A stretch of 64,000 bases of DNA, taken from contig DASUFV010000064.1 of the NCBI GenBank assembly GCA_036274415.1, positions 2,064-66,063 of the forward strand. Reading direction: 5' to 3'. The notes under the pieces were generated by a model that searched no databases, was not told the DNA's origin, and saw nothing but the letters and a program-made list of their open reading frames with translations. Source of the DNA: Actinomycetes bacterium. GTDB lineage: Bacteria; Actinomycetota; Actinomycetes; JAHEKZ01. A program made the position numbers and the translations under genes. Positions 4,602 through 20,686 of the stretch are shown piece after piece. Each line of letters opens with the position of its first letter. Position 1 is the first letter of the stretch.

Positions 4602-5961
4602 CGCAGTCGAAGGGCTGATCGCCCACAACGAGTATGTCTTCGGGAACAAGGTCTTTCCGCATCACCGGCAGATGCTCGAGCACATCTTCGAGGGCATCGC
4701 CGAGCGGCGGCACAACGTCAACCTGCTCCCGCGCGGCGCCGCGAAGACGACGCACGGCAACACCGGGCTGTGTTCTTGGCTGATTGGCAACTTCCCCGAC
4801 ATCGCGATCGGCTTGATGTCGAACACGCAGGACATGGCCGATGCCATGAGCAAGGCGGTGCGCGACACCGTCGAGTTCAATCCACGCTTCACCGAGCTGT
4901 ACGGCAACCTGAAGTCCGACAGCAAGTGGACCGACAAGGAATGGACCCGGTCAGGGTCGAAGCTGATCGGCACCAACAACCGCACGATGTTCGCCCGGGG
5001 CGTGGGCGGGTCGATCATCAGCAAGCGCTTCGACATCATCATCCTCGACGACATCCTCGACCCGGAGAACACCGAGACTCCGGAGCAGCGTGCGAAGGTC
5101 ACCGAGTGGTTGCTCAAGGTCGTCCTGCCGTGCCTGAAGCCGGACGGCGTGGTGGTGGTGCTCGGCACCCGGTGGGCCGTCGAGGACACCTACGAGCTGC
5201 TGATCACCCCAGAGGATCAGCTGGTCGGCAACGAGCACGGCAAGGGTTGGGACCTGCTTCTGCTGAAGGCCCTCGAGGGCGACCTGAACGACCCCTCCTC
5301 GTTGACCAGCTACTGGCCTGAGTACTGGCCGGTCGACAAGCTGCTCGCCAAGCGCAAGGACCTCGGCACGCCGCTGTTCCTGTGCGCGTACCAAAATGAC
5401 GTCGAAGGACTGATGACGGGCTCGGTCTTCCCGGGCTCGTTCGAGTACTTCGACAGGCTGCCCGAGGGCAAGAGCTACACGATCCGGATGGGCATCGACC
5501 TGGCCAGCTCCGAGAAGGAGCGCGCCGACTGGACGGCCCGGGTCACGACGGCCGAGGACGAAGACGGCAACTTCTACGTCCTGTCGGTGGTCCGCGACAA
5601 GCGCGAGACGCACCATGCCGAGTTCATTCACGAGGGCTGGCTGGCTTACCCGACGATGGGTCTGGTCATCTGCGAGAGCCAGCAGTTCCAGTCGACCCTG
5701 ATCCAGGAGGTTATGGCCGACTACCCACGGATCCCGATCGAGGGTCGCCAGCAGGACACCGACAAGACCACCCGGGCGCGCGCGGTGGCAGCGAAGTATG
5801 AGGCCGGTCGGGTCAAGCATCGGAGCACCCTCCAGGGGTCCGACTTTGAGACCGAGCTCAAGGCGTTCCCGAAAGGGCACGACGACATGGTCGATGCCCT
5901 CGGGTACTCCATGGACCTCGGCGGCGATGAGTTCTTCTTCGCCGCCGTGCAGCGGAGGTAA
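4471..5961 (+). CDS. terL: terminase large subunit
   Basis: Walker A-like LLPRGAAKTT and Walker B IIILDD. C-terminal nuclease region. ATG 4471 is preferred over TTG 4447. Confidence 0.9.
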   Translation: MPDPEKYRPPSLSSLRASLESVDLPPETWDELRSQALRALVRTDAVEGLIAHNEYVFGNKVFPHHRQMLEHIFEGIAERRHNVNLLPRGAAKTTHGNTGLCSWLIGNFPDIAIGLMSNTQDMADAMSKAVRDTVEFNPRFTELYGNLKSDSKWTDKEWTRSGSKLIGTNNRTMFARGVGGSIISKRFDIIILDDILDPENTETPEQRAKVTEWLLKVVLPCLKPDGVVVVLGTRWAVEDTYELLITPEDQLVGNEHGKGWDLLLLKALEGDLNDPSSLTSYWPEYWPVDKLLAKRKDLGTPLFLCAYQNDVEGLMTGSVFPGSFEYFDRLPEGKSYTIRMGIDLASSEKERADWTARVTTAEDEDGNFYVLSVVRDKRETHHAEFIHEGWLAYPTMGLVICESQQFQSTLIQEVMADYPRIPIEGRQQDTDKTTRARAVAAKYEAGRVKHRSTLQGSDFETELKAFPKGHDDMVDALGYSMDLGGDEFFFAAVQRR

Positions 5962-5963
5962 TC

Positions 5964-6524
5964 GTGAGTTTCGACTGGGCAAGCCGTCAGAACGAGCTGG
6001 GTGGTCACAAGCACCTCGCGGTGGACATCATCGCCGAACCAGAGGCTGGCGAAGCGATCGTTGTCTATCGCAAGGCCATCGTGCTAACGAATGCCCAGAT
6101 CAATGCGCTGCCGACAACACCAATTGAGGTCATTGCCGCGCCTGGCGAGGGGCGCATTCTACAGGTCATCGGAGGTGTGCTGTCGAAACATTTCGTGGCG
6201 ACCCATTCAAACCTCGATAACGCAGCGATCTGGGCGCTTTGGTATGGCTCTGGGTCTGATGTCCTTGACAATTACCAGATGGCGTCGAGTCCCTGGCGGT
6301 TCAACGGATCGAGTGGCGACTCGTATACCTCGCTTGGGACCCCGGTATTTCCAGGCACTGGCGCGACTGACGGCTACATCATCCGCCAGTGGTCTGCTGA
6401 CGCTACCGTTGCGGTGAATCAGCCTGTCGCGCTCGCCATCGATAACGCTTCTGCGGGTGATCTGACAGGCGGCACATCCGATACCGTGACCCTCACGGTG
6501 CACTACACCACGGTGGAGACGTAA
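5964..6524 (+). CDS. hypothetical protein in a compositionally atypical gene (lower GC, AT-rich third positions)
   Basis: GTG 5964 follows GGAGGTAA. 186 aa. Noticeably lower GC than its neighbours. Confidence 0.6.
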   Translation: MSFDWASRQNELGGHKHLAVDIIAEPEAGEAIVVYRKAIVLTNAQINALPTTPIEVIAAPGEGRILQVIGGVLSKHFVATHSNLDNAAIWALWYGSGSDVLDNYQMASSPWRFNGSSGDSYTSLGTPVFPGTGATDGYIIRQWSADATVAVNQPVALAIDNASAGDLTGGTSDTVTLTVHYTTVET

Positions 6525-6528
6525 CTGC

Positions 6529-6879
6529 ATGGCCGGGATCCGGGTGCAGCATCCAGAGCAGCGCAACGTGCGCTACACCGTCGTCGAGCCGAACATCCCC
6601 TATCCGGTCCCCTACGTGTGTACCCCGCCTGAGTTCGGCGGCTGCGGGTCCACGCACCTGTTCAAGACGCATCACCTGAACCTGGACTCAACCGGGGCGG
6701 TGATCGTGTCGACCGGCGTCTTCGCGCGGATCAAGGACCGCCTGGCGCTGGATGGCTTCGTTGTTGCCAACGAGGTCAAGAAGCCGCCGAAGATCGGTAT
6801 CGGTATGAGTGCCGACAAGAGGGGCATGACCCCCGGCATCCAGATCGTCCGCTCACCACACAGCAAGGAGCCTCTCTGA
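6529..6879 (+). CDS. hypothetical protein
   Basis: 116-aa ORF. Stop overlaps the next ATG. Confidence 0.55.
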   Translation: MAGIRVQHPEQRNVRYTVVEPNIPYPVPYVCTPPEFGGCGSTHLFKTHHLNLDSTGAVIVSTGVFARIKDRLALDGFVVANEVKKPPKIGIGMSADKRGMTPGIQIVRSPHSKEPL

Positions 6880-7295
6880 TGGCCAACGCGGTCTACGTTC
6901 CCTTCCGGAATGGTGTCCTTGGTTCGCACACGACCCGTGTGGACCTCGATGCCGACAACATCAAGGCTGTCCTGACCGACCACGGCGCCGACACGCCGAA
7001 CGTCACGACGGACGACTTCCTCAACGACATCAGCGCGGGCACGATCGCGACGTCGGCGAACTTCACCGGCAAGACGATCGGCACGGTCGCAGCTGGCGTG
7101 TTCGATGCCGACAACATCACGTTCACGGCAGTGTCGGGCGCCAGCGTCGAGTCGGTGAACATCTACAAGGACTCGGGCACCGCGGCGACCAGCGACCTGA
7201 TCGCCTACTTCGACACGGGCACAGGACTCCCCGTCACGCCGAACGGTGGCGACATCACGGTCACCTGGAACGCGTCGGGCATCTTCACCTTCTAG
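6879..7295 (+). CDS. hypothetical G/T/S/A-rich protein (fibre or decoration-like)
   Basis: 138 aa. ATGA-type overlap. Confidence 0.55.
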   Translation: MANAVYVPFRNGVLGSHTTRVDLDADNIKAVLTDHGADTPNVTTDDFLNDISAGTIATSANFTGKTIGTVAAGVFDADNITFTAVSGASVESVNIYKDSGTAATSDLIAYFDTGTGLPVTPNGGDITVTWNASGIFTF

Positions 7296-7304
7296 GGGGG
7301 CCTG

Positions 7305-7865
7305 ATGGCTGACAACGTCGGGTATACGCCGGGATCCGGGGTCAGCGTCTCCACCGAGGAGGTGACGACCCTCAATGGTGGCGCTGTTTCCGCCCAGCAC
7401 GTTCAGCGCGTGGCGAATGCGCTGCGCACAGCTGACGGCACGGCGATCGACCTGCCGGGTGACTCGACCAACGGACTCGACGTCGACGTCACCCGGCTTC
7501 CTGTCCCGCACGCCTCGATCGGGACCCCTCTGTCGATCGGACTTGCGACCAGCTCGACCCAAACGAGCGCCAACCTCGTCGCGGGCACGGGCGGTCAGAG
7601 GATCTACGTCACCCATCTGACGATCGCCACCGCGGGGACCACCTCGGGTCGCGTGTCGATCTACTGGGGGACCGGCGCGTTCACGGCGGGCACGAGCCCG
7701 ACCCTGTTCGACGGCGAGTTCAAGCCATCGTCTACCAGGGAGGCCGGAGTGGCGCTGGTATTCCCATTCCCGGTCGGTGGCGCGTCTGCCACCGGCGACA
7801 ACCTGCGCATCACAACCAGTGCCGCGATGACGATCTATGTCACCGGTCAGTGCTACAAGGCGTGA
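7305..7865 (+). CDS. hypothetical G/T/S/A-rich protein
   Basis: 186-aa ORF with the same composition as its neighbours. Confidence 0.55.
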   Translation: MADNVGYTPGSGVSVSTEEVTTLNGGAVSAQHVQRVANALRTADGTAIDLPGDSTNGLDVDVTRLPVPHASIGTPLSIGLATSSTQTSANLVAGTGGQRIYVTHLTIATAGTTSGRVSIYWGTGAFTAGTSPTLFDGEFKPSSTREAGVALVFPFPVGGASATGDNLRITTSAAMTIYVTGQCYKA

Positions 7866-7868
7866 CGC

Positions 7869-8567
7869 GTGGCAATCACGCGAACGGCCAAGGGAACAGC
7901 CTCGCTCAAGACGTCCGGCACGACGCTGACGTTGGCGTCGGTGGCGATGACGACCGGGCATCTCCTTGTCGTCTCGCTGGCCTACGACGACCAGACGCTC
8001 GACTCGGTCACGTGGGGATCTCAGGCCCTGACACTTGGTGACGCCGTCCTCGGAGCCGGGGTACGAACCCGCTTGGCGTGGGGAACGATCGTCTCTGGTG
8101 GGACGCAGACCATCACAGCGACGTGGGCTGCGAGCCTCGTCGCCAAGGCATTCACCGCGTCGTCCTACAACTCGAGCGTAGGCGGGATCGTTCCGACCGA
8201 GGACAGCAACGCGACCAACACCGGGATCGGCACCAGCGCGACTACGGCCGCGCTGGCCGCGATCGTGGGTGGAACCGAGTCAATCCTCGTCGGCGTCGTC
8301 GGCACCGAGGGACCATCTGGCGACACAGCTGGCACGTGGTCAACCCCGAACACCAACGGGCAGCGAGTCGGGACGACCGGCAACCCAGCCGCTGGCAACG
8401 TGACGTGCTCTGAGGCGTATCAGCTCGCGCCGTCCGCGGCCAGCACGCCCTCGCTGTCCAAGACGGGCATGACCAGTCGGGATTGGGGAGCCGCGCTGCG
8501 CGCGTTCTACTGGGCGGCCCCGGCGACCGACACAGGTGGCCTACTCGGTAGTGGCTTCTTCGGCTAA
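7869..8567 (+). CDS. hypothetical G/T/S/A-rich protein
   Basis: GTG start. 232 aa. Confidence 0.55.
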   Translation: MAITRTAKGTASLKTSGTTLTLASVAMTTGHLLVVSLAYDDQTLDSVTWGSQALTLGDAVLGAGVRTRLAWGTIVSGGTQTITATWAASLVAKAFTASSYNSSVGGIVPTEDSNATNTGIGTSATTAALAAIVGGTESILVGVVGTEGPSGDTAGTWSTPNTNGQRVGTTGNPAAGNVTCSEAYQLAPSAASTPSLSKTGMTSRDWGAALRAFYWAAPATDTGGLLGSGFFG

Positions 8568-8578
8568 GGAGGTAATCC

Positions 8579-11500
8579 ATGAGCCTCCTGACGCTGCTCC
8601 AGACGACCGTCACCGCGCCGAGTGATGCCTACGGGGCGGCTGTATTCGAAGACCAGCCTATTGCGTTCCTGCGGCTCGACGAAGCCTCTGGGGCCGCCGA
8701 TGACTACATGTCGCCGGGCCGGACTTGGTCCAACAACGGGACGATCACCCAGGGCGTTAGTGGGGTCTTGAACGCACCTGGTGGCACGGCAGTCGAGTTC
8801 GACGGGGTGAACTCGGGTTACTTCCAGAGCCCAGTATCGACTGCTCTCGACATAGCTGACGTGTTCACGCTTGAGGCGTGGATCAAGCCAGACACGTTCA
8901 GTGGTGGCAAGGTCATCCTCCAGAAGGGCACCGGCACGGGCCGGATCACGTGGGAGATGATCGCGACCACGTCACTGGGCCTGTACGTCAATGGCGTCGA
9001 GGCGGCGCATACAGGCGATGTATTCACGGCGGGCCAGCCGTACCACGTCGCTGTCACCAAGAACGGATCGACGACCAAGCTCTACGTCAACGGCGTCGAT
9101 CAGACGATCTTGGGCACCAACAACACGGTCGGGTCAAGCGGTGACACGTGGCGGATCGGTGAGCACAACTCGGGCGGTGAGCTGTTTGACGGCGTCATCG
9201 ACGAAGTCGCGATCTACAACACGGCGCTGTCCGCGGCCCGGGTCAAGGCTCACTACGACGTCGGTGCGAGCGCGTACGCCCGCGAGGTGTTTAGCGACAG
9301 CCCCGTTGCCTACTACCGCATGGGCGAGCCGTCCGGCGACGTTCTCGACGACATGGGCGGGGACTCCGGCGCCGCCACTGGCTCGCTCACGCGCGATGTC
9401 GTCGGTGGCCTGAATACCAGCAACGACGACGGGGCGATCGACTTCGACGGCTCGACCAGCTACGTCTCGGTGCCCCATCAGTCCAAGCTCAATCTCGGCA
9501 ACGGCCCGATGTCGTTCGAGTTCTGGATCAAGCTCGGGAACCTTGGGCTCACCGAGCAGAAGATCATCGACAAGGACACGACCGGTGCGTACCAGGTCGT
9601 CAAGCTGTCGTCGGGAGCGGTACAGCCGAACGGCATCGCGTTCGGCAAGGCCGATGTCGCGTTCATCGCGTCGTCGACGGTCAGCCTTGACTTGGATTGG
9701 CATCACGTCGTCATCACGAAAAGCGGCTCGACGACGAAGATATACATCGACGCCGTCGATCGAACCGGAACCGTGACCGATCAGACGCTCGGCGACACCG
9801 GCGGATCGCTTTACATCGGCTCGCGGCGCGGCGGTGCATTGGAGTTCCTCGACGGCAGCCTCGACGAGCTCGCGATCTACAACACCGAGCTGAGCTCTGC
9901 TCGCATTGCTGCACACTACGACGCGGGAAAGTCGACCGGCGCGCAGTCGGTCAGCGTTGGACTGATCAACCAGGCGGCGACGACGTTCACGCCGACGGTT
10001 ATCGCAGTACGGAACCTGTCGGTCGGCCTGATCAATCAGGCTGCGGCGACGTTTACGCCGACCGTCCTGCAGCAGCAGTTCGTTTCAGTCGGCCTGATCA
10101 ACCGAATGGCCACAGCCAGCACGCCGACCGTCACCTCGCTGGCGACGGTGTCGGTCGGGCTGATCAACCAGGCGGCTACGGCGTTCGCGCCGACGGTCCT
10201 GCAACAGCGGTTCGTCAGTGTGGCGCTGATCAATCGCACAGCGACAGCGTCGACGCCCACGATCACGTCAGTAGCGACGGTCAGCGTTGGTCTGATCAAC
10301 CGCACAGCGGCCACGTTTGCGCCAACGATCACGACCGGCGCGGCGGCGCTCACGGTCGGGCTGATCAATCAGACAGCGGCCACCTTCGCGCCGACGGTCA
10401 TTCCGGGCGCCGTCAACGTCAGCGTTGCGCTGCTGAGCCAGGCCGCGTCGGCGTTCGCACCGACCGTTGGCCGGAACGTCAGCGTTGCTCTGATCAGCCA
10501 GGCTGCGGCGACGTTCACACCGAACATCGGCCGGAGCCTGTCGGTCGGCCTGATCAACCAGACAGCGGTCACATTCACGCCGAGCGTCGGCCGGAACATC
10601 GGCGTTGGGCTTGTCAACCGGACGGCGGTCGCCTCGGCGCCGACCGTCACGAGCGTCGCCTCGATCTCGCTGGCCCTGATCAACCGGACGGCAGTCGCCT
10701 TGGCGCCGACGATCGACGCCGGGCAGGCGGCGATCAGCACGGGGCTGATCAACCAAGCAGCGGTGGCGCTCACGCCAACGGTGACCTCGCTGGCCACGGT
10801 CAGCGTCGGGCTGATCAACCGGACGGCAACGGCCAGTACGCCGACGATCCAGCAACAGCAGTTCGTCGGGCTTGCGCTGATCGACCGGACGGCGGTTGCC
10901 CAGACGCCAATCGTCACGAGCGTTGCCTCGGTCAGCTTCGGGCTGATCGACAGGACGGCCCAGGCGCACGCGCCAGCGATCAGCTACCAGCAGTTCGTCT
11001 CGCTGGGCTTTGTCAGCCAGACGGCGGTTGCCCAAGAACCGACGATCACGACCGGCGCAGGCAGCGTGGTCGTCGATACGATCAACCAGGCGGCGACGAC
11101 GTTCACGCCGACCGTTACGACGGGCGCAGCGACAGTCAGCGTCGCGCTGATTGATCGAACTGCCGCGGCCTTCGCCCCAACGATCACAACCGGCGCGGTT
11201 GGGATCAGTGTCGAGCCCATCAATCAAACGGCAGCAGCGCTCTCGCCGTCGGTCGCGAACATCTACACGATCAGCGTTGGGCGGATTGATCGAACCGCCA
11301 CAGCGTTCAGCCCGGGGATCGTCCAGGCCGGGTTCATCTCGCTGGGTCGCATCAATCAGGAAGCTGCCACGTTCGCTCCGGCGATCACGTCGGGCGAGGC
11401 GCAGGTCGTTGTCGGACTCGTCAGCCAGTTGGCTGCGACGTTCGCCCCGGCCATCGCCGCTCAGGCGTCGATCAGCCTGGGACAGGTCAACCAGACCGCC

Positions 11501-11737
11501 GCTGCATTCGACCCGACGCTGACGACGTTCGCGACGATCAGCTTCGGGAGGGTCGACCAGCCCACGGCGGCGTTCGCGCCGACCGTGAAGCAGTTCGGCG
11601 ACACGCTGCCGTACCCGGTGGACGTGTCGATCTATGTGGAAGCCAAGCCGAGCGCCAGCCTCACCGTCGAGGACGGCTACAAGGCTGAGCTCGCCGCGGA
11701 CGGCTCAATGCTCGCCACCCTGACGAGAGGAACCTGA
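8579..11737 (+). CDS. large fibre-like protein with 2 LamG (concanavalin A-like lectin) domains and about 25 tandem 22-aa repeats
   Basis: 1052 aa. The two LamG signatures are FTLEAWIKPD...DEVAIYNTALSAARVKAHYD and FEFWIKLG...DELAIYNTELSSARIAAHYD. These are followed by repeats of the form VSVGLINQAAATFAPTV, then a C-terminal unique domain. Confidence 0.85.
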   Translation: MSLLTLLQTTVTAPSDAYGAAVFEDQPIAFLRLDEASGAADDYMSPGRTWSNNGTITQGVSGVLNAPGGTAVEFDGVNSGYFQSPVSTALDIADVFTLEAWIKPDTFSGGKVILQKGTGTGRITWEMIATTSLGLYVNGVEAAHTGDVFTAGQPYHVAVTKNGSTTKLYVNGVDQTILGTNNTVGSSGDTWRIGEHNSGGELFDGVIDEVAIYNTALSAARVKAHYDVGASAYAREVFSDSPVAYYRMGEPSGDVLDDMGGDSGAATGSLTRDVVGGLNTSNDDGAIDFDGSTSYVSVPHQSKLNLGNGPMSFEFWIKLGNLGLTEQKIIDKDTTGAYQVVKLSSGAVQPNGIAFGKADVAFIASSTVSLDLDWHHVVITKSGSTTKIYIDAVDRTGTVTDQTLGDTGGSLYIGSRRGGALEFLDGSLDELAIYNTELSSARIAAHYDAGKSTGAQSVSVGLINQAATTFTPTVIAVRNLSVGLINQAAATFTPTVLQQQFVSVGLINRMATASTPTVTSLATVSVGLINQAATAFAPTVLQQRFVSVALINRTATASTPTITSVATVSVGLINRTAATFAPTITTGAAALTVGLINQTAATFAPTVIPGAVNVSVALLSQAASAFAPTVGRNVSVALISQAAATFTPNIGRSLSVGLINQTAVTFTPSVGRNIGVGLVNRTAVASAPTVTSVASISLALINRTAVALAPTIDAGQAAISTGLINQAAVALTPTVTSLATVSVGLINRTATASTPTIQQQQFVGLALIDRTAVAQTPIVTSVASVSFGLIDRTAQAHAPAISYQQFVSLGFVSQTAVAQEPTITTGAGSVVVDTINQAATTFTPTVTTGAATVSVALIDRTAAAFAPTITTGAVGISVEPINQTAAALSPSVANIYTISVGRIDRTATAFSPGIVQAGFISLGRINQEAATFAPAITSGEAQVVVGLVSQLAATFAPAIAAQASISLGQVNQTAAAFDPTLTTFATISFGRVDQPTAAFAPTVKQFGDTLPYPVDVSIYVEAKPSASLTVEDGYKAELAADGSMLATLTRGT
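9950..11580 (+). repeat. in-frame tandem repeat array (period about 63-66 nt, about 25 copies) inside gene 8579..11737
   Basis: Recurring GGNCTGATCAAYCRGRCNGCNRYNRCNTTYRCNCCNACN units seen directly in the sequence. Confidence 0.85.
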
Positions 11738-12108
11738 TGGCCACGAAGCTGCTTGTAGACCGCGGCGACGACGAGATCATCCACATGGCCATCACCAAGG
11801 ACAACGTCGCTGTCAATCTCGAGAACTGCAAACTGTGGTGGTACATCGGCACCTCGTCTGTCCCAGCCGTCGTTCCGAATGCGATCGTGACCAAGGACAC
11901 CGACGGGGCCGACATGGTCGTGATCGACGAGCCGGGCGGACTGATCGACATCACGCTGCATCCAGAGGACACCAACGACATCGCGGTGGGCTTCCTGAAC
12001 AAGGACCTGCCGTGGGAGGTCCAGATCCTCGATGCCGGGGGCAAGATCCAGACGATCGCCCGGGGCACGATCAAGATCCAGGCAGACATCATCCGAGCGG
12101 AGGCGTAG
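11737..12108 (+). CDS. hypothetical protein
   Basis: ATGA overlap at 11735-11739. 123 aa. Confidence 0.55.
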   Translation: MATKLLVDRGDDEIIHMAITKDNVAVNLENCKLWWYIGTSSVPAVVPNAIVTKDTDGADMVVIDEPGGLIDITLHPEDTNDIAVGFLNKDLPWEVQILDAGGKIQTIARGTIKIQADIIRAEA

Positions 12109-12109
12109 C

Positions 12110-12307
12110 GTGCCGGAGCTGAAGTTCCGCGACGGCAAGCGCGTTGTGCCCGACTACATGGCGCGCCTGATGGCTGGGATCGAGGTCAAGAACATGACCT
12201 ACGAGGAGGCCATTCGCGCGATGAACCACAAGATGGAGAACGACCACGTGGAGCGGGCTATGTCTCGCATCGTGGACCGCCACTTCATGGAGAACCCCCG
12301 CGGATGA
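12110..12307 (+). CDS. hypothetical small protein
   Basis: GTG 12110 two nt after the upstream TAG, preceded by GGAGG. Coding part of track ORF 12032..12307. Confidence 0.45.
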   Translation: MPELKFRDGKRVVPDYMARLMAGIEVKNMTYEEAIRAMNHKMENDHVERAMSRIVDRHFMENPRG

Positions 12308-13602
12308 GCGTGATCGACACGATCCGGGATTACGTCAGCCGCCCGACGCGCGTGCCGAACAACGTGGCGATCGCTGTGGCGTCTACCGAGCGCGGCCGCG
12401 TCGCCAAGACGAACGCGCGTCGGCTTCGGACGTGGTCGGAGCGATCCGAGTGGATCCGTGCTGCGATCAACATCCGCAAGACGCAGGTGTCGGGTGCTGA
12501 GTGGGACATCGTCCCCGCCGACCCGGATGGGCCTGCGATCGACCTCGGGCTGCAGAAGGAGATCCGGGACCGGCTCGAGTTCGCCAACCCGAAGGCCGAG
12601 AACTTCAACGTCCTGATGGACAAGATCGTCGAGGACATCATCGTGCTCGACGCAGGCGTGATCGAGATCGAGCCGAACCTGATCGGTGAGCCGCTGTACT
12701 TCCATGACGTGGCTGGCGAGGAGGTCCGCGTCAGCTCCCTGTGGGACGGCATGGATCCCGACGAGCCGCGCTACTTCTGGTATCCGGACAACTTCGAGCG
12801 GGGACGCTGGACCAACGATCAGATCGTCTACATCATGGAGACCAGCCGGACGAACTCGGTGGTCGGCCTCTCCAAGCTCGAGACGCTCGCGCTGTCGATC
12901 GACAGCGAGCTCGACGGCCACGCGTTCAACGCGCGCCAGGTGCGCAATGCGGCGCCGGACGGCCTGTTGCACCTCGGCAAGGGCGCCAAGCAGGAGAACG
13001 TCGAGAGCTTCCGCGCCTTCTGGCAGGCCGAACAGGGCCGCGGCGCGATGGCCATCACGGGCGGCAGCGATGCCCCGGCGTGGCTCAAGTTCCACGACAG
13101 CAACCGCGACATGCAGTTCCTGGAGTGGCAGATCTACCTCGTCCGCAAGATCGCCGCGGTCATGGGCATGGACCCGGGCGACCTGGGCATCGGCATGGAC
13201 ATCAACCGCTCGACGGCCGAGGTCCGCGACAACCAGACCGAGGACCGCGGCATCCGGCCGCTGATGAACACGCTGGCCAAGCACATCACGCGCGAGATCG
13301 TCTGGCACCCGGGCTTCGGCGGGCAGGACAACAACCTGCGCTTCCACTGGACGAAGCTGAACCTCAAGGAGTCGGCTGCTCGGGCGGCGATCTACAAGAT
13401 CGCGCTCGGCGGCACGCCGTACATGAGCGTCAACGAGGCTCGCAAGGAGACCGGCCGGGATCCGTGGGGCCCCGAGTTCGACGATCCGATCATCACCAAT
13501 CCACAGGGCACGTTCTCACTCAAGGACATCCCGACGATCCGGGAGTTCCTCGACATGAAGAACCAGGCCAAGGAGTTGCCGAGTGGGGCGACGGACGATT
13601 GA
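12304..13602 (+). CDS. portal protein
   Basis: 432 aa with an HK97-type portal region (...QFLEWQIYLVRKIAAVMGMDPGDLG...). ATGA overlap at the start. Confidence 0.85.
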   Translation: MSVIDTIRDYVSRPTRVPNNVAIAVASTERGRVAKTNARRLRTWSERSEWIRAAINIRKTQVSGAEWDIVPADPDGPAIDLGLQKEIRDRLEFANPKAENFNVLMDKIVEDIIVLDAGVIEIEPNLIGEPLYFHDVAGEEVRVSSLWDGMDPDEPRYFWYPDNFERGRWTNDQIVYIMETSRTNSVVGLSKLETLALSIDSELDGHAFNARQVRNAAPDGLLHLGKGAKQENVESFRAFWQAEQGRGAMAITGGSDAPAWLKFHDSNRDMQFLEWQIYLVRKIAAVMGMDPGDLGIGMDINRSTAEVRDNQTEDRGIRPLMNTLAKHITREIVWHPGFGGQDNNLRFHWTKLNLKESAARAAIYKIALGGTPYMSVNEARKETGRDPWGPEFDDPIITNPQGTFSLKDIPTIREFLDMKNQAKELPSGATDD

Positions 13603-13798
13603 CCGCCCGCCGACCAAACGACAGATCGAGTGCTTTGAGACCTACGCCAGGTTCGGCGACGGCGCAGAAGCTGCTCGCAGGCTGGGCATCAGCATTCAGC
13701 AGTTGAAGCGCATGTGCGGCCAGTACTATCGTCGCGTCGGCGCCAACAGTGGCGTCCAGGCCGCCTACCTGACGTGGGGCCCGAAGGACAACGCATGA
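13583..13798 (+). CDS. small HTH protein (sigma-70 region 4 / LuxR-like helix-turn-helix)
   Basis: GTG start after AAGGAG. TKRQIECFETYARFGDGAEAARRLGISIQQLKRM. Confidence 0.55.
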   Translation: MGRRTIDRPPTKRQIECFETYARFGDGAEAARRLGISIQQLKRMCGQYYRRVGANSGVQAAYLTWGPKDNA

Positions 13799-14418
13799 TC
13801 GAACTCGAGCCGGTCGATCCCGAGTTCTACGACCGGGAGTACTACACCAGCGGGACCAAGTCGAACTACGCGCCGTACGGCCCCGGGTCGTGGGCCGACT
13901 GGATCGTCGATATGGCCATGAACCACGTGAAGCCGAGGCCGTCGAGCGTGCTCGATGTCGGTTGCGCGTATGGCTTCCTGGTGGAGCGGTTCTGGAACCG
14001 GCTGGGAGTTCCGGCCTGGGGGTTCGACATCTCCCGGTACGCCATCGAGAAGCAGGGGTTTCTCGGGCGGACATGGGTGGGCGATTGCGCGGATCCGGCT
14101 GCATGGAAGACCGTCGACCTTACGCTCGCGTGCGAGCTTGGTGAGCACCTGACGCCAGCGCAGGCACAGCAGATGCTTCGGAACGCATTCACGTTCAGCA
14201 ACCGAGCGTTGATGCTCATCGCGGTTGACCTGGGCGACTACGACAGTCACGCAGAGACCGATGGATCGCACATCCACGTGGTGCCGATGGCCTGGTGGGA
14301 ACAGGCAGCACGAGAGGCAGGCTGGAGCGTCGCGGACGCCAGCGCGTTCAATGAAGACTGGCGTTCGAGCCAGATGGGTTGGTCGGGCCGCTGGCTCTAC
14401 CTGACAAAGGAGGCGTAA
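13795..14418 (+). CDS. class I SAM-dependent methyltransferase
   Basis: ATGA overlap. Motif I VLDVGCAYGFLVERF. Confidence 0.75.
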   Translation: MIELEPVDPEFYDREYYTSGTKSNYAPYGPGSWADWIVDMAMNHVKPRPSSVLDVGCAYGFLVERFWNRLGVPAWGFDISRYAIEKQGFLGRTWVGDCADPAAWKTVDLTLACELGEHLTPAQAQQMLRNAFTFSNRALMLIAVDLGDYDSHAETDGSHIHVVPMAWWEQAAREAGWSVADASAFNEDWRSSQMGWSGRWLYLTKEA

Positions 14419-14421
14419 GCA

Positions 14422-14979
14422 ATGGCAGCTGCCATCACCGCCCGAACAGGATCGGGCAGCGTCGTCAAGGCCAAGACGGCGGTCCATGTCGAGGTCACCG
14501 GGGCCGAGGCCAACGTCGGCGACACGGGTCCCGTCAGTGTCACCGCAGCGTCGGTGGCGAACCCAACGCAGCTCACCACCGCCACGGCCCACGGGCTGAC
14601 GACGGGCGAGACGGTGACGCTCGCCGGGTTCGACACGACCCCGACGATCAACGGCTCGCGGGTCGTAACCGTGGTCGACACGACGCACTTCACGGTCCCG
14701 GTCAACGTGTCCGCCGTCACCGACGGCACGGGCACCGTGGAGCGGACGAAGAACGTGGCAGGGCTCGAGGTCGGCACCGAGAAGCGCTACTACCTGCTGG
14801 TGGACGCTCCGGCCGGTGTAGATGACGCCCGCAGCCACGTGTTCCAGACGTCCGCCGACGGCAAGCACGTCTGGGACGACTACATCTTCCCCGCGGCCGG
14901 GTCGTACACGATCCGCCTGCGAGACATGCTCGACGACAGCGACGTGGCGACCCTCGCGGTCACCGTCGACGCTGCCTGA
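14422..14979 (+). CDS. hypothetical T/G/V-rich protein (possible virion or decoration protein)
   Basis: 185-aa ORF. Confidence 0.55.
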   Translation: MAAAITARTGSGSVVKAKTAVHVEVTGAEANVGDTGPVSVTAASVANPTQLTTATAHGLTTGETVTLAGFDTTPTINGSRVVTVVDTTHFTVPVNVSAVTDGTGTVERTKNVAGLEVGTEKRYYLLVDAPAGVDDARSHVFQTSADGKHVWDDYIFPAAGSYTIRLRDMLDDSDVATLAVTVDAA

Positions 14980-14991
14980 CCGGAGGGCCAG

Positions 14992-15735
14992 ATGGCAACA
15001 CAGCGCAAGACCACCCGGCGGCAGCCGACCCGGAAGCCTCGGGCTGCTGCCAAGCCGACAGCCGCGGCCGAGACCTCTGCTGATCTCGAAGCGGGCAAGG
15101 TCGCAGCTGAAGTCAACGCCGACCAGCAGGACTCGACGCTCACGACCGATGACGGGCGCGACATCGAGGAGCTTCGCAAGGAGCGTGCCGACCTGATCCG
15201 CGAGATCCAGGAGCTCGAGGAGAAGAAGGTCAAGGCAGCCCAGGACGCCGCCGCGAAGGCGGGCCAGGTTGCCAAGATCGACGACGCCGGGGCGCTGGAG
15301 CAGCAGGAGGCAGCGCGTGACTCCGGTCGCGAGCTGTACGACAGGCTGGGCATCCTCGAAGGTCCGCCTGTCGTTGCTCCTCAGCTCGACAATCTCGACG
15401 GCAAGGTCAAGGTTGTCTCGCGCCGCGAGGGCGACAGCTGGAACAAGTCGGTCAACAAGCTGCGCTTCGTTGGGTTCGTGGCCCACGTCGTGGGCGAGGA
15501 TCTGCCGTGGCCCGCGGAGATCATTGTCGACATCCGCCGCAAGGACGGCAGTGACCACCAGCGCTTCAGCGCGTGGAGCGAGAACGGGACGATCGACGTC
15601 CCGCTTCCGGGGATCACCGGCGTGGGCGACTACGTCCTCCACCTGGAGCACCTGGAGACACGCGTCGGCGAGGGCAGCGACGAGCGGCTGCCGATCGTCC
15701 GCGAGTCCAAGCCCCTCGAGATCAACCTGTACTGA
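14992..15735 (+). CDS. hypothetical protein with a basic N-terminus and a coiled-coil segment
   Basis: 247 aa. EELRKERADLIREIQELEEKKVKAAQD. Confidence 0.55.
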   Translation: MATQRKTTRRQPTRKPRAAAKPTAAAETSADLEAGKVAAEVNADQQDSTLTTDDGRDIEELRKERADLIREIQELEEKKVKAAQDAAAKAGQVAKIDDAGALEQQEAARDSGRELYDRLGILEGPPVVAPQLDNLDGKVKVVSRREGDSWNKSVNKLRFVGFVAHVVGEDLPWPAEIIVDIRRKDGSDHQRFSAWSENGTIDVPLPGITGVGDYVLHLEHLETRVGEGSDERLPIVRESKPLEINLY

Positions 15736-15743
15736 GGTGCCGC

Positions 15744-16037
15744 ATGGCTGACGACGAGAAGCAGGAGGAGGCCCCGAAGGGCTTCGTCTCCACCGCCGAG
15801 GGAGCTGAGACCAACGAGCCACTCGGCTCGGATCAGGAGCGCCCGAAGCAGACCCCGGACCAATTCTTCGACCCGAGTCGCGATCGCCCGGACGCGGCCG
15901 AGGCGCCGAAGAGCCATGCCACCAAAGGCATGACCAGCCTCGGCTACACCGAGGCCAGTCGGCTTGAGAACACCGCCGAGCAGCAGGAGCGCGATCGCAA
16001 GGCCGCCGAAAGGCTGGCCACGAAGTCGAAGGACTGA
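15744..16037 (+). CDS. acidic low-complexity protein
   Basis: ATG 15744 within track ORF 15573..16037. Contains SLGY. Confidence 0.5.
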   Translation: MADDEKQEEAPKGFVSTAEGAETNEPLGSDQERPKQTPDQFFDPSRDRPDAAEAPKSHATKGMTSLGYTEASRLENTAEQQERDRKAAERLATKSKD

Positions 16038-16096
16038 CGCTAGGGCGGCACCGCACTCTGAGTTGGCGTGGGCGTCCACGCCAACAAGGAGGCCAT

Positions 16097-16222
16097 ATGC
16101 CTGAAGTCAAGCGAGAGCAGACCAAGGGCGGCAAGACGGGCTCGACCCCGAAGCTGCCGACCAAGGGCGCCGAGAAGGGCGCGAAGTCGACCGAGGAACG
16201 GGTCGAGAAGCAGGAGCGCTGA
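16097..16222 (+). CDS. small lysine-rich protein (41 aa), below the track cutoff
   Basis: AAGGAGG precedes ATG 16097. MPEVKREQTKGGKTG... Confidence 0.3.
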   Translation: MPEVKREQTKGGKTGSTPKLPTKGAEKGAKSTEERVEKQER

Positions 16223-16519
16223 GTGGCACGCGAGAAGGCCAAGGGCGTCGACAAGCCCGACAAGGATGCCATCGCGGAGGCGGGTGAGGCCGATGTCTCG
16301 ACCGCCGACGGTGGCGACGACGCAGCCGATCTCGAGGGCTACACGGGTCCGGACGGATCCAAGAGCCTCGGCTACCTAAAGCACGCGCCGGTCGAGGACA
16401 ACAGCGGCCTCGGTGCGGATGCCGACGATGCGGGTCGCACGACCCAGGAACCGGGTCAGAACTCGGGCGCCGGGCAGCCGCAGAACGAGAACGAGTCCAA
16501 GCCGGTCAGCGAGGCGTAA
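16223..16519 (+). CDS. acidic low-complexity protein
   Basis: GTG 16223 directly after the upstream TGA. Contains SLGY. Confidence 0.5.
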   Translation: MAREKAKGVDKPDKDAIAEAGEADVSTADGGDDAADLEGYTGPDGSKSLGYLKHAPVEDNSGLGADADDAGRTTQEPGQNSGAGQPQNENESKPVSEA

Positions 16520-16527
16520 CCAACTAA

Positions 16528-16559
16528 GGCCCCCGACCCCCAGCGGGGGCCTTTCCTTT
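16528..16559 (+). terminator. intrinsic terminator
   Basis: GGCCCCCG-acccccag-CGGGGGCC followed by TTTCCTTT. Confidence 0.7.
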
Positions 16560-16780
16560 CCGGCCGTCACCCGCTATCTTGCGGGGGACTAGGGCTCCCG
16601 GGCCCAACGCCGGACGGACGGTGCGCAATGCGCTGTCCGACCGACCCGGTCGATCCCCACGGGAAGACGTGGTTCCCCGAGCCGACGTGATCTCGGCGAG
16701 TGGGGTATGGGACCACGCACCGGGTCTTTCTCTTTCAACCATCAGCCGGGCGTGAGTGCGCGTCCGGCGTGGAGGTATGC

Positions 16781-18049
16781 ATGGCGCGGGTTCTTTGGAT
16801 CGGTGACGCTGGCTCGCACACGGGCTTCGGCCGCGTGACCCGCGAGCTCACCACTGGGCTCCTCGATCGCGGACACGACATCACGGTCCTGGGGCTGAAC
16901 TTCACGGGCGATTACGACCCGGACATCGACCAGCGGCTGAAGGTGTACCGAGCCGACCTGTACGGCTACAACGATATGTTCGGGGTGCGGCGCGTACAGG
17001 AGATGGTCGACCACGTCGAACCCGACGTCAGCGTCGTCATGCACGATCCGGCGGCAGTATGGCAATACCTCTGGGAGAACCCATACGACCCGGGGCAGAG
17101 GCTGTTCAGCCGTCCGGTGCTGGCCTACTGCCCGGTGGATGGGTACGACTACCCCACCGACTGGACCGAGATGCTGCCGCAGGCCACGAACTTCGTGACC
17201 ATGAGCCAGCACGGCGCGAGCATCTTCAAGCCGTCCGCCGTCGTTCCACACGGCGTGCGGTCGGAGTTCTTCTATCCCGTCGCGGAAGGTGAGCTGCTGA
17301 CGGACGACGGGCAGGTGCTGGGCTCCAAGGAGGAGTGCAAGGAGCACCTCGGGATCGACCCGTCTCGGTTCCTGGTCCTTCGCGTCGACGCGAACTCGGG
17401 TCGCAAGGACTTCGCCGCCACGATCCGCGCCGTCGCTCCGCTGTTGGAGCGTCAGCGCGACATGACGATGTGGTTGCACACCAACACAGATCCGCGGTCG
17501 CCGGGCGTGAAGATCCGCTCGATGCTCAACCGCTACGACCTGGCCCCAACCCAGGTGATGCTGTCGGACTTCGGCAACGGCACCAAGGGCTGGCCAGAGA
17601 ACAGATTGCGCATCCTCTACAACGCAGCGGATGTGTTCGTCAGCACGAGCCGGGGAGAGGGCTTTGGCCTGACGATCGCCGAGGCCATGGCCTGCGGCGT
17701 CCCCGTCATCGCGCAGAACGTGTCGGCGATCCCCGAGACCGTCGGGCCAGGCGGCGTCCTGATCGACTCCGACCGGCGCATCACTGTACCCGCGGGCCAG
17801 GACTTGTGCCTGGCCGACATCGACGCCTTCACCGAGGCCCTCGAACGGCTCTACACCAACGAGGTGTGGCGCACCGAGCTCGGGCAGGCAGGCCGGAAGC
17901 ACGTCACCGAGTCCTTCAGATGGGACACCGCGGTGGACAGCTTCCACGACTTCATCGAGCGGATTGCCGCTCGCTGGAGAGCATCGCAGGAGGCACCAAC
18001 CGATGGATCTGAACGAGCAGATCTCCCTGATGAAGGCGCTGGGGGTTGA
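16781..18049 (+). CDS. GT4-family (GT-B fold) glycosyltransferase
   Basis: GGAGGT precedes ATG 16781. EGFGLTIAEAMACGVPVIAQ is the GT4 E-x7-E region. About 422 aa. Preceded by a terminator and a roughly 220-bp leader. Confidence 0.85.
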   Translation: MARVLWIGDAGSHTGFGRVTRELTTGLLDRGHDITVLGLNFTGDYDPDIDQRLKVYRADLYGYNDMFGVRRVQEMVDHVEPDVSVVMHDPAAVWQYLWENPYDPGQRLFSRPVLAYCPVDGYDYPTDWTEMLPQATNFVTMSQHGASIFKPSAVVPHGVRSEFFYPVAEGELLTDDGQVLGSKEECKEHLGIDPSRFLVLRVDANSGRKDFAATIRAVAPLLERQRDMTMWLHTNTDPRSPGVKIRSMLNRYDLAPTQVMLSDFGNGTKGWPENRLRILYNAADVFVSTSRGEGFGLTIAEAMACGVPVIAQNVSAIPETVGPGGVLIDSDRRITVPAGQDLCLADIDAFTEALERLYTNEVWRTELGQAGRKHVTESFRWDTAVDSFHDFIERIAARWRASQEAPTDGSERADLPDEGAGG

Positions 18050-19280
18050 CCTCCAGAAGGACGCCGAGTATCTCGAGCCGGTCGAGGCCACCGAGATCAA
18101 GTTCAAGATCTATGCGCGCGACCACGACGGGCACGGGGCTGCGCTCAAGGCGTGGACCGAGAAGATCGCCGACAGCGACGAGGAAGACTGGCTGCTGTCG
18201 GGCATCGCGTCCTCGACGATCAAGGACCTGCACGGCGACACCATGCTGCCGTCGGCGCTCATCGACATGGAGCGCAGCGCCAAGAACAACCTGACGATCT
18301 TCGGGAACCACGAGTACCATGTCCCCGAGGACGTCTACGGATCGGTGCTCGCGGCGTCGATCGTCGCGTCGGGCGAGGTCGACGAGAAGACCGGCGCCCC
18401 GCTGTACGACCTGAACTTCGAGAAGATCCGCGTCAACAAGCGAAACGAGCGGGCCAAGAACAGCTGGCTGGCCATGAGCGATGGCACCAAGCTCGGCCTG
18501 TCGATCGGCGCGCGGATCCCCGAAGGCGGCGCGATCCGCAACAAGAAGACCGGCACGCTGCTGATCGCCCACGTCGACCTGCTCGAGACGAGCATCGTCG
18601 GCATCCCGGCGAACCCGCGCAGCTGGATCGACAGCGCCACGCGCGCCGTCAAGGCGTACGAGGTGCAGACAGCCAAGACCGCATCCGGTATCGAGGTGCC
18701 GGTCACGGTCAAGGTCGCCACGGTGACCGAGCCAACCGAGACCACGCTCGGAGAGGACGGCGTCGAGGAGGGCAAGACCCCCGAGACCATCGTCTCCGAT
18801 GACAAGGCGGGGGAGCCCGCCGATCCTTCCACCAACACTGACGCACCGTCGCAGGACGCTCAGCTGAGCCAGCCTGAGAACGATGGGGCAGACGCCGCGC
18901 CCGAGGTCATCGCAGCTGCGAACGATCTTCTGGACGAGACCGCCAACGCTCAGGTGCCGGACGAGGCGAAGGAACTCCTGATGAGCCTTCGCGAAACACT
19001 CGCCACCGTCACCGCCGAGTTGATTGATGTGGACGAAGCCCGGAAGGCCGCAGAGCAGCGAGTGGATGAGCTCGAAGCGAAGCGCGTCGAGGAGCACGAG
19101 GAGGCGAAGGACATCGTCACTCGGGCTCTTGATCTGGTCAACCAGGTGGGCAAGCTGCCTGCTGGCCGGATCGCATCGTTCAAGCACATCCAGCGCACCG
19201 CCGACCAGCTCTCGGACGACTACGAGTCGCTCGGGTTCGTGCCGGAGGTCGCCAACATGCTCAGGCAGAGGAACACATGA
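18003..19280 (+). CDS. prohead protease (HK97/S78-like) fused to a coiled-coil scaffold-like C-terminal region
   Basis: AGGAGG precedes ATG 18003. LSGIASSTIKDLHGDTMLPSA. C-terminal ELIDVDEARKAAEQRVDELEAKRVEEHEE. Confidence 0.75.
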   Translation: MDLNEQISLMKALGVDLQKDAEYLEPVEATEIKFKIYARDHDGHGAALKAWTEKIADSDEEDWLLSGIASSTIKDLHGDTMLPSALIDMERSAKNNLTIFGNHEYHVPEDVYGSVLAASIVASGEVDEKTGAPLYDLNFEKIRVNKRNERAKNSWLAMSDGTKLGLSIGARIPEGGAIRNKKTGTLLIAHVDLLETSIVGIPANPRSWIDSATRAVKAYEVQTAKTASGIEVPVTVKVATVTEPTETTLGEDGVEEGKTPETIVSDDKAGEPADPSTNTDAPSQDAQLSQPENDGADAAPEVIAAANDLLDETANAQVPDEAKELLMSLRETLATVTAELIDVDEARKAAEQRVDELEAKRVEEHEEAKDIVTRALDLVNQVGKLPAGRIASFKHIQRTADQLSDDYESLGFVPEVANMLRQRNT

Positions 19281-20686
19281 GCGACATCACCCCGACGGTT
19301 CGGAACGCGGAGGAGTCCCTGGAGAAGATCTCGGGCTTCCTCGGGCTGTCCGGAACGCCTTCCGCCGACCCCGTGGCTCTTGCGGCCCAGCAGGCGGCCG
19401 AGATCCAGGCCCAGGCCGCGCAGGCAGCTGCGCAGGCCGCAGCTGGCTCGGTCCCGACCGAGGGCATCGAGAACCAGTTCCGGTCCTTCATGGACCAGAT
19501 CGCCGCGAAGCAGGCGGCCGCCACCGAGGCGCGGCTCAACGTCAAGCGCGAGCTCCGCAAGCGCGAGACCGACGAGCTGCTCTACATGTTCGCCAAGCAG
19601 GCCCGGGCCAAGAGCGTCGGCACGCCGCTCGACTTCTGGCTCGCCTCGGGCGGCCAGATGCGGATGGACGGCTTCGGCCAGCTTCCGGGCCAGGTCGAGC
19701 CGGACGTCGCCCGCGCGATCGACACGTCGACCGCGACGGCGCTGATCCGGCAGGACCTCGAGCCGATCATGTACGAGCTGTTCGTCCGGGAGTTCCCGGG
19801 CTTCGAGCGGTTCCGTCGTGAACCGGCCAACGGCCTGACCCACACCTGGAACCAGGTGACGAGCTACGGCGACGCCCAGTTCATGGGTGAGCTGGGTACC
19901 GTCACCGACGACCGCAGCAACTACGTCCGGCAGACGACCAACGTCGCGATCATCGCGACGCGGCGCGGCGTCTCGCTCAAGTCGCAGTTCGCGGTCATCG
20001 CGGGCGGCGCCGGGTTCAACCCCGAGCAGCTCGAGCTCCTGGGCGGCAACCGGGCCCTGGCGCACCGGATGCAGTACCAGATCTTCTCCGGCCACTCGAC
20101 GGACAACACGGGCACAGCGAACAACGAGCTGGGTCTCTACGACCCCAACGCGTTCACCGGCCTGCGCTCGATCCTGAACACGGCGCGGGCGAAGAACGTC
20201 GACCCCCTCGCGTCCACGCCGCAGGACATCCGCCGGGCGATCAACCAGGCGGCGGTCGAGGTCATCCAGCAGGGCGGCCGGGTCTCCATGATGTGGGGTT
20301 CGCCCCTCGACAAGGAGGTCTTCGACGCCCAGCAGGACAAGAACGTCCAGTACATCAACAGCCTGGTCAACGTCGCCGTCGGCGTGACCACGAACGCGGT
20401 CAACACCGTGTTCGGCGCGCTGCCGTACGGCGTTCTCGTCGGTGACGCGATCGGGTCGTACGTGCCGGAAGTCCTGCCCTCTGGCTGGACCAACGCGCGG
20501 GACCTGTACCTGCTCGACGAGTCGACGATCACGATGCCGTACCTGGGCTCCGAGGGTCCGACGATCCTCGACATCCCGATCGGCATCAGCGGCCAGCTGA
20601 CGCACCTGTTCATCATCTTCGGGATGTGGGGTCTCGCCGTGAAGGCGCCGACCTTCAACAACAAGGTGCGCATCCGCGCCAGCTGA
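19277..20686 (+). CDS. major capsid protein (HK97-fold type, with an N-terminal Q/A-rich delta-like region)
   Basis: 469 aa immediately after the protease. ATGA overlap. A strong terminator follows. Confidence 0.75.
   Translation: MSDITPTVRNAEESLEKISGFLGLSGTPSADPVALAAQQAAEIQAQAAQAAAQAAAGSVPTEGIENQFRSFMDQIAAKQAAATEARLNVKRELRKRETDELLYMFAKQARAKSVGTPLDFWLASGGQMRMDGFGQLPGQVEPDVARAIDTSTATALIRQDLEPIMYELFVREFPGFERFRREPANGLTHTWNQVTSYGDAQFMGELGTVTDDRSNYVRQTTNVAIIATRRGVSLKSQFAVIAGGAGFNPEQLELLGGNRALAHRMQYQIFSGHSTDNTGTANNELGLYDPNAFTGLRSILNTARAKNVDPLASTPQDIRRAINQAAVEVIQQGGRVSMMWGSPLDKEVFDAQQDKNVQYINSLVNVAVGVTTNAVNTVFGALPYGVLVGDAIGSYVPEVLPSGWTNARDLYLLDESTITMPYLGSEGPTILDIPIGISGQLTHLFIIFGMWGLAVKAPTFNNKVRIRAS

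Follow-up and report, generated by a model that had tools for sequence, protein, structure and literature searches.

A Glycosyltransferase Gene Fixed beside the Prohead Protease and a Variable Interval Upstream of It in an Uncultured Phage Lineage

The DNA analyzed here, a 64,000-nucleotide stretch of contig DASUFV010000064.1 (assembly GCA_036274415.1; hereafter the window), is a phage genome of 65% GC and uniform composition in which ~4.4 kb of additional genes (positions 13583-18049), including those of a methyltransferase and a GT4-type glycosyltransferase (hereafter GT4), separate the portal gene from that of the prohead protease. The original prediction, made from this DNA by itself, took the block to be an island inserted at this site and a module for modifying virion proteins or a non-protein target. 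Judged by gene order in related phage contigs, the island is a conserved variable region and not an insertion peculiar to this genome, and GT4 is a core head-operon gene of this lineage. The observation is real and its reading as a glycosylation module is reasonable; we hypothesize, with moderate confidence, that virion proteins are glycosylated in the cytoplasm by GT4, that the transferred sugar is then methylated and that the locus diversifies the glycan of the particle.

GT4 Lies Directly Upstream of the Prohead Protease across the Lineage

Genes were called from an open reading frame (ORF) listing together with frame analysis by third-codon-position GC (GC3), which backs the frames of the island genes. 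The enzyme and accessory genes of the original prediction were all recovered on the plus strand, in frames that agree with GC3. From portal to capsid, the features are as follows (aa, amino acids; values in brackets are E-values).

12304-13602, plus strand: portal, 432 aa, left edge of the variable interval (Pfam Phage_portal, 1.1e-27)
13583-13798, plus strand: HTH71, 71 aa, overlapping the portal stop by 20 nt (frame from GC3)
13795-14418, plus strand: class I S-adenosylmethionine (SAM) methyltransferase, 207 aa, ATGA overlap with the HTH71 stop (Methyltransf_23)
14422-14979, plus strand: p185, immunoglobulin (Ig)/FN3 fold
14992-15735, plus strand: p247, FN3-like C-terminal domain
15747-16037, plus strand: ac96, acidic low-complexity protein (frame from GC3)
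16097-16222, plus strand: bas41, 41-aa Lys-rich basic protein with an AAGGAGG ribosome-binding site (frame from GC3)
16223-16519, plus strand: ac98, acidic low-complexity protein whose GTG start abuts the bas41 stop
16526-16561, plus strand: intrinsic terminator, hairpin at 16526-16553 followed by a U-rich tail
16610-16626, plus strand: invariant 17-mer CCGGACGGACGGTGCGC within the leader
16781-18049, plus strand: GT4 glycosyltransferase, 422 aa (Glyco_trans_1_4, 3.4e-17)
18003-19280, plus strand: prohead protease/scaffold fusion, 425 aa, right edge of the interval (Peptidase_S78, 4.9e-4, under cut-off)
19277-20686, plus strand: capsid (SU10_MCP, 4.7e-5, weak)

When 50,697 phage records were searched with the region by megablast, no match was returned, hence no close cultured relative at the nucleotide level, and the portal shares ~24% identity with those of the SPO1 group. 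Portals 37-58% identical to that of the window occur in 73 IMG/VR contigs, and by mapping the window proteins onto these and four further contigs we carried out the synteny check that the original prediction had proposed. The shared order is terL, g12032, portal, variable interval, GT4, protease and capsid, and GT4 stands immediately 5' of the protease gene in each of the 12 other contigs that extend as far as this gene (L006, L033, L063, L075, L077, L078 [the same contig as L014], L079, L080, L087, L089, L091 and L092), making 13 of 13 with the window. Portal identity to the window in those 12 contigs is 41-70%, and retention of GT4 at a fixed place in the head operon over such a span speaks for a part in making the particle and against a moron.

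Upstream of this junction the interval is variable, the distance from portal end to GT4 start ranging from 1.7 kb (L063) to 9.9 kb (L014), with 3.2 kb in the window. The reading as a recent insertion was rejected: flanking repeats are short and at chance level only, GC and GC3 of the block match the rest of the genome, and the position of GT4 is fixed in all 13 contigs. In a distant clade (L067-L073; portal ~38% identical), the opposite strand carries the protease and capsid genes, which there precede the portal, and GT4 was not detected in the sequence examined, a layout suggesting that the GT4-bearing arrangement is specific to one sub-lineage.

The GT4 gene starts at ATG 16781, 5 nt downstream of a GGAGG ribosome-binding site (16771-16775), and its 3' end lies 47 nt inside the protease ORF, bearing out the ribosome-binding site and the protease overlap originally noted. 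The protease start at 18003 aligns with the L087 homologue from residue 1, and this protein additionally matches the NCBIfam models scaf_prot_MCP2 (2.4e-8) and proheadase_HK97 (4.4e-5). GT4 exceeds the Pfam cut-offs for Glyco_trans_1_4 (63.5 bits, cut-off 27) and Glycos_transf_1 (1.4e-16; 61 bits, cut-off 26.4), with sub-threshold matches of its N-terminal domain to Glyco_transf_4 (24.9 bits, cut-off 28.5) and Glyco_trans_4_4 (23.1, cut-off 29.7); it also matches phrog_2170 (9e-38) and, in the PDB, MshA-type 7qsg (1e-15) and the chlorovirus protein B736L (3e-11). R208, K209 and the EX7E pair E293/E301 are invariant across 21 GT4 homologues, cultured phages included. By its C-terminal domain and these motifs, the protein is assigned to the CAZy GT4 type, with a GT-B fold and a retaining-type mechanism, and it looks catalytically intact. 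At least 883 homologues are found at E <= 1e-10, and nearly all of the best 120 of these (>=45% identity) lie on contigs of <=77 kb, consistent with phage genomes.

A phage-encoded GT-B enzyme might instead glycosylate phage DNA, by glucosylation or hypermodification of hydroxymethyl-pyrimidines, as protection against restriction. Some phage GT-B enzymes are indeed able to glycosylate DNA (PMC12619734), and GT4 matches the Pfam family GT4-conflict at 3e-11. We nevertheless hold this to be highly improbable: GT4 resides in the head operon and not in the replication module, PADLOC returned no match for any of the eight island proteins, and no dCMP/dUMP hydroxymethylase or thymidylate-synthase-like gene occurs among the ten largest early ORFs, smaller ORFs not having been scanned (those identified encode ERF, a PD-(D/E)XK nuclease, RadC and an FtsK-like protein).

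The Methyltransferase Occupies a Slot That Is Swapped among Sister Phages

The methyltransferase (likeliest start ATG 13795, giving 207 aa) carries the motif VLDVGCAYG and matches Methyltransf_23 (7e-7; 29.6 bits, cut-off 27) and phrog_27380 (5e-19), in agreement with its original assignment to the class I SAM methyltransferases. The domain searches proposed for the two enzymes returned Pfam domains above cut-off for both; a PDB search with the methyltransferase gave no match. Far under the NCBIfam cut-offs lie matches to the MftM oligosaccharide methyltransferase (2.8e-4; 20.3 bits, cut-off 200) and to a pseudaminic-acid-associated methylase (5.5e-4; 20.1 bits, cut-off 112). Its cultured-phage homologues form only two groups, both inside sugar clusters: that of HTVC008M neighbors a glycosyltransferase (GT), a Nol-like carbamoyltransferase and a UDP-glucose dehydrogenase, and that of SynMITS9220M01 a heptose isomerase/epimerase and a GT.

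Among close relatives, L087 keeps the methyltransferase (72.5% identity), whereas in L077 and L089 the slot is taken by a GT-A protein of 237 aa (GT2-like). The family of this protein has a further member in L052, again immediately before the p185 homologue, and members farther upstream of p185 in L006, L014, L036 and L038. Its profile matches, in the PDB, the peptide or protein glycosyltransferases SunS (8e-10), ThuS (3.5e-6) and GmaR (1.2e-5) and then TarS, and six of its seven members also match GT2 families in Pfam. The likeness to SunS, ThuS and GmaR belongs to the slot GT2 of L077, L089 and L052, an enzyme absent from the window, and it spans the GT-A catalytic domain only, from which acceptor specificity is not readable. 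Given the gene context of the cultured homologues and this exchange with a GT2, the methyltransferase of the window is most readily taken for a glycan-tailoring enzyme, a probable sugar O-methyltransferase.

The rest of the interval varies in a similar fashion. Relatives encode, between portal and GT4, an NAD-dependent epimerase/dehydratase (1.7e-34), a GT2 and a hexapeptide acyltransferase (7e-25), additional GT2s (6e-22, 1e-6 and 1.8e-5), and Methyltransf_24 or Methyltransf_11 proteins alongside a GT2, to which L092 adds an epimerase. Just upstream of GT4, several contigs encode a protein of 800-1170 aa and, after it, a BppU_N-like one of ~105 aa. The closest subfamily (L077, L087 and L089; capsid 73-79% identical) shares the order HTH71, enzyme, p185, p247, small disordered proteins, terminator and leader, GT4. 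Even here the interval is rearranging, since L087, the closest methyltransferase-bearing relative, has an Endonuclease_7 gene (2478-2759) between methyltransferase and p185 and places its basic protein before ac96. From these comparisons, cassettes appear to be exchanged as the locus evolves, while its place in the head operon stays fixed.

The same data bear on the possibility that the enzymes modify a phage protein outside the particle, or act separately, with GT4 working on the scaffold/protease or an acidic protein for assembly control and the methyltransferase on a protein (at Lys, Arg or Glu) or a small molecule. The overlap of GT4 with the protease/scaffold gene, the conservation of the acidic proteins beside GT4 in the subfamily and the contextual nature of the sugar assignment would all fit, as would the finding that methylation of tail proteins matters in mycobacteriophages, where a host enzyme performs it (PMC13445384). 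Yet most of the family lacks p247 and the acidic proteins while GT4 persists, and occupation of the methyltransferase slot by a glycosyltransferase in L077, L089 and L052 suggests that both enzymes tailor the same glycan; we therefore regard these versions as quite unlikely.

Accessory Proteins, Terminator and Leader

Most of the 4.4 kb is nonenzymatic, so that the original description of a modification module stands in part: GT4 looks intact, homologues of the methyltransferase lie in sugar clusters and relatives encode glycan enzymes in the interval. Of the nonenzymatic proteins, p185 is an Ig/FN3-like beta-sandwich with an inserted E1-FCCH-like barrel, Thr-rich and 22% Ser+Thr, and its C-terminal domain is present between portal and GT4 in most loci with sufficient downstream sequence. 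Adjacent to it, p247 combines a disordered N-terminus, a helical (coiled-coil-like) stalk of ~60 residues and an FN3-like beta-sandwich at the C-terminus. Ig and FN3 folds are typical of exposed phage structural proteins, and p185 is likely to be a virion surface accessory protein and a candidate glycan acceptor.

HTH71, named for a predicted helix-turn-helix (HTH), has homologues in L077, L087 and L089 that occupy the corresponding place. The window protein is HTH-like, as originally noted, and its assignment to the sigma-r4/LuxR class comes down to sub-threshold matches: RWP-RK (1.7e-3), HTH_8 (4.7e-3) and HTH_1 (0.019) for the window protein; HTH_1 in four of four homologues (best 6.4e-5), GerE in one (1.6e-4) and Sigma70_r4_2 in one (1.1e-3); and GerE 1fse in the PDB at E 0.2.

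The trio of acidic, basic and acidic proteins described originally holds for the two acidic members, ac96 (pI 4.8) and ac98 (pI 4.1), and its basic member is bas41 (pI 9.8) instead of a 103-aa ORF (16068-16379), which lies in the wrong GC3 frame and was rejected as a high-GC artefact. An 835-aa antisense ORF (13765-16272) was likewise rejected by GC3 as a high-GC frame artefact. The three members of the trio are low-complexity disordered proteins conserved in the subfamily only, and none matches a family in Pfam, NCBIfam, PHROGs or PADLOC. The ac96 motif HATKGMT[SVT]LG[YW][TS]EASR[LI]EN is kept in L077, L087 and L089, the ac98 motif GY[TR]GPDGSKSLGY..SGLGADADDAGR is kept in relatives, and the bas41 homologue of L087 is 80% identical. 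SLGY is present in both acidic proteins, as had been noticed; as a sign of paralogy it was rejected, since the two proteins have distinct conserved motifs that coincide in these four residues only.

Between ac98 and GT4, the terminator hairpin has a 10-bp GC-rich stem, an 8-nt loop and a U-rich tail (dG -21.1 kcal/mol); it is also found by a terminator scan, and hairpin and T-rich tail align across the window, L077, L087 and L089. Presence of the terminator and of a leader of about 220 bp (227 nt between terminator and GT4) agrees with the original prediction, and its conservation in four loci adds to this; the strength then ascribed to it is tempered by a z of -2.1, only modestly better than shuffled sequence. 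In L014 and L063, GT4 follows the upstream gene without a leader. Within the otherwise divergent leader, ~60-85 nt past the hairpin, stands the 17-mer CCGGACGGACGGYGCGC, with one copy per leader in L077 (9514-9530), L087 (5032-5048), L088, L089 (5514-5530) and L090, partly overlapping a possible hairpin GGACGGTGCGC-AAT-GCGCTGTCC. A repeated promoter or operator was rejected, as the window holds a single exact copy and matches with <=3 mismatches are no commoner than chance; the 17-mer could be a promoter, operator or processing site. Rfam returned no family in the window, and an alifold of the four leaders, in which the L087 coordinates were misplaced, gave weak pairs only. Partly autonomous transcription of the GT4 unit, as first proposed, is plausible from this arrangement.

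Proposed Role in Virion Glycosylation

We hypothesize that GT4 is co-transcribed with the prohead protease and capsid genes, its coding sequence overlapping that of the protease, and that late in infection it would transfer, in the cytoplasm, a sugar from a host nucleotide-sugar (the putative donor) onto a phage virion protein. Candidate acceptors would be capsid or tail(-tube) subunits, by analogy with mycobacteriophages, or the co-conserved p185. The SAM methyltransferase would next O-methylate the transferred sugar, its presumed target. In sister phages, GT2s (some of them SunS/GmaR-like), an epimerase/dehydratase and an acyltransferase would take over in the methyltransferase slot and its neighborhood, and this swapping suggests that the locus diversifies the glycan displayed on the particle. 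In the same scheme, p185 and p247 would serve as surface accessory proteins, the HTH-like protein and the three disordered proteins would be subfamily-specific additions, and the terminator and conserved leader would divide a predicted portal-to-ac98 transcription unit from a GT4-protease-capsid unit.

Gene content, folds, catalytic motifs, synteny and cassette swapping were observed, and the support that they lend to this scheme is circumstantial: the coupling of GT4 to head genes, the enzymes of the interval, the likeness of some of these to protein glycosyltransferases, the solubility of the island proteins and the mycobacteriophage precedent. Glycans on capsid and tail-tube subunits have been reported in mycobacteriophages, those of Cluster O included, together with a weaker neutralizing-antibody response (work cited in PMC11600133, PMC12619734 and PMC12363180).

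Several points weigh on the other side. The acceptor is a candidate only, and neither the capsid nor the tail-tube protein ends in an obvious Ser/Thr-rich tail. The virion ORFs singled out in the original prediction do contain 21-27% Ser+Thr, as against 9-13% in enzymes and early proteins; such richness does not identify acceptors and is typical of fibre-like beta-proteins, not specific to glycoproteins. The substrate class of the methyltransferase derives from context and sub-threshold matches. Lastly, GT4 enzymes very often use lipid-linked or small-molecule acceptors, and the best PDB and NCBIfam matches of GT4 are to MshA, glycogen synthase, exopolysaccharide (EPS) and phosphatidylinositol mannoside (PIM) enzymes.

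The breadth of GT4 acceptors makes modification of the host envelope a real rival, in which GT4 and the methyltransferase would act during infection on an envelope glycan or lipid-linked precursor, masking receptors against adsorption to debris or infected cells or altering the wall before lysis, with the head operon providing late timing only. The closest characterized relatives of GT4 work on non-protein substrates (MshA, PimB/PimA-type, EPS, teichuronic acid and glycogen enzymes), annotators at JGI label homologues "glycosyltransferase involved in cell wall biosynthesis," and the PHROGs category is "moron, auxiliary metabolic gene and host takeover." The matches to characterized enzymes, however, reflect generic similarity of the C-terminal domain, far under family cut-offs, and seroconversion or moron genes do not typically keep so strict a position as GT4 does beside the protease in 12 other contigs. 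Moreover, in the eight island proteins no 19-residue Kyte-Doolittle mean exceeds 1.4, so that there is no transmembrane-grade segment and hence no membrane-spanning flippase, Gtr-type protein or polymerase in the island, and SunS/GmaR-like protein glycosyltransferases occur in the same locus of relatives. Envelope modification is accordingly, in our view, unlikely.

Within the virion glycosylation hypothesis, a more specific version, which we offer as rather unlikely, is that p185 and GT4 form a head glycan-display system, with p185 as carrier, swappable tailoring cassettes (a methyltransferase, SunS-like GT2, epimerase or acyltransferase) making the locus a phage counterpart of O-antigen loci, and terminator and 17-mer setting how much GT4 is made compared with the products of the genes before it. 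If this were true, the virion surface would be diversified between close relatives.

Genomic Context

Late genes occupy the plus strand to ~42 kb and early genes the minus strand. The features upstream of the portal are as follows.

4447-5961, plus strand: terL, 47-70% identical to terL of the portal-family contigs
5964-11737, plus strand: extra block of Ser/Thr-rich beta-proteins, the last a 1052-aa LamG-repeat protein (Laminin_G_3, 1.5e-45)
11737-12307, plus strand: g11737 and g12032

The window makes up 64 of the 66.6 kb of its contig, deposited within an "Actinomycetes bacterium" metagenome-assembled genome (locus tags VFX15_0285x). It has the look of phage DNA throughout and contains no tRNA genes; the contig is apparently that of a phage and was binned together with bacterial sequence.

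In most relatives terL and g12032/portal adjoin each other; in the window they are separated by ~6 kb (5964-12108) encoding four or five Ser/Thr-rich (17-27%) beta-proteins plus the 1052-aa protein. The latter has two LamG domains and a "VSVGLINQAATTFAPTV"-type repeat of ~17 residues that recurs ~30 times in tandem, and shows BLAST similarity to tail proteins at 31615-36654 and 36654-38240. As relatives carry the pair of 800-1170-aa and BppU_N-like proteins before GT4, a large fibre-like gene pair may have crossed the portal; no similarity was found between g11737 and the BppU_N-like 103-aa protein of relatives. In the same block, g6529 (116 aa, 6529-6879) has a 76%-identical homologue in L060 (8182-8523), located downstream of the portal and not upstream, and with portals only 47% identical it looks like a recently exchanged moron. 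Farther downstream, the tape measure protein (24658-30504, 1948 aa) contains an HNH-like Cys/His motif, CAHCG...NLQTLCSSCNSRK, at about residues 610-670, and the homologous gene of L089 has a weak precomputed Pfam HNH match.

Comparison with Known Systems

The architecture had been thought undescribed, and this does not hold: in the Cluster O phage Corndog, an O-methyltransferase (gp35) and three GTs (gp36-38) lie between portal (gp34) and protease (gp39), and modification of the capsid was proposed for gp35-38 by the authors (PMC4351075). Both loci place a SAM methyltransferase and one or more GT genes between portal and protease of a high-GC actinobacteriophage siphovirus. BLASTP of the window and island proteins against Corndog gp34-41 gave no match at E <= 0.01, which limits the analogy to architecture and is a further point against the glycosylation hypothesis; with the same architecture, a probably shared logic and unrelated enzymes, the locus is analogous to the Corndog cassette and not a member of it. 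The three Corndog GTs are annotated as glycosyl-, galactosyl- and glucosyltransferase, whereas the window has a single GT4 of GT-B type. Unlike Corndog, the window also has Ig-like, disordered and HTH-like proteins and an internal terminator and leader in the interval, and its lineage has a hypervariable interval of 1.7-9.9 kb.

Homologous GT4s (24-27% identity, E 1e-21 to 1e-24) that share the invariant catalytic residues occur in the cyanosiphovirus S-CBS4 (gp14-gp16), the Tetrasphaera phage TJE1 (orf9-14) and the Pontimonas phage phiPsal1 (gp10-12). In S-CBS4, GT4 lies between portal and protease with GalT and a SAM methyltransferase; in TJE1, it stands beside a nucleotidyltransferase, kinase, epimerase and methyltransferase; and phiPsal1 has a GT1, methyltransferase and GT2 between capsid and neck genes. 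The methyltransferases of these phages are not detectably related to that of the window by BLASTP, and their loci are without p185-like, p247-like or acidic proteins.

In chloroviruses, enzymes that the virus itself encodes add glycans to the capsid protein. B736L (PDB 3oy2), the second-best PDB match of GT4, is a virus-encoded GT4-type protein; it belongs to a eukaryotic giant virus and has a putative acceptor only, and the likeness is confined to the nucleotide-sugar-binding C-terminal domain.

Virion glycosylation is reported to weaken the neutralizing-antibody response to the particle and has been demonstrated in few mycobacteriophages only (PMC11600133). Our findings will be unsurprising to a phage specialist. 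The locus suggests that glycosylation of the virion, here with unrelated enzymes, belongs to the core traits of a large phage lineage from the environment. If so, GT4 directly upstream of the protease would be a metagenomic marker predicting glycosylated virions, and the naturally occurring cassette variants would form a series by which enzyme sets could be related to glycan structures. Set against the known systems, what is new here is the enzyme set, a GT4 of GT-B type different from that of Corndog, the association with Ig-like accessory proteins, and the fixed GT4-protease junction with a cassette-swapping zone upstream of it across a large uncultured lineage.

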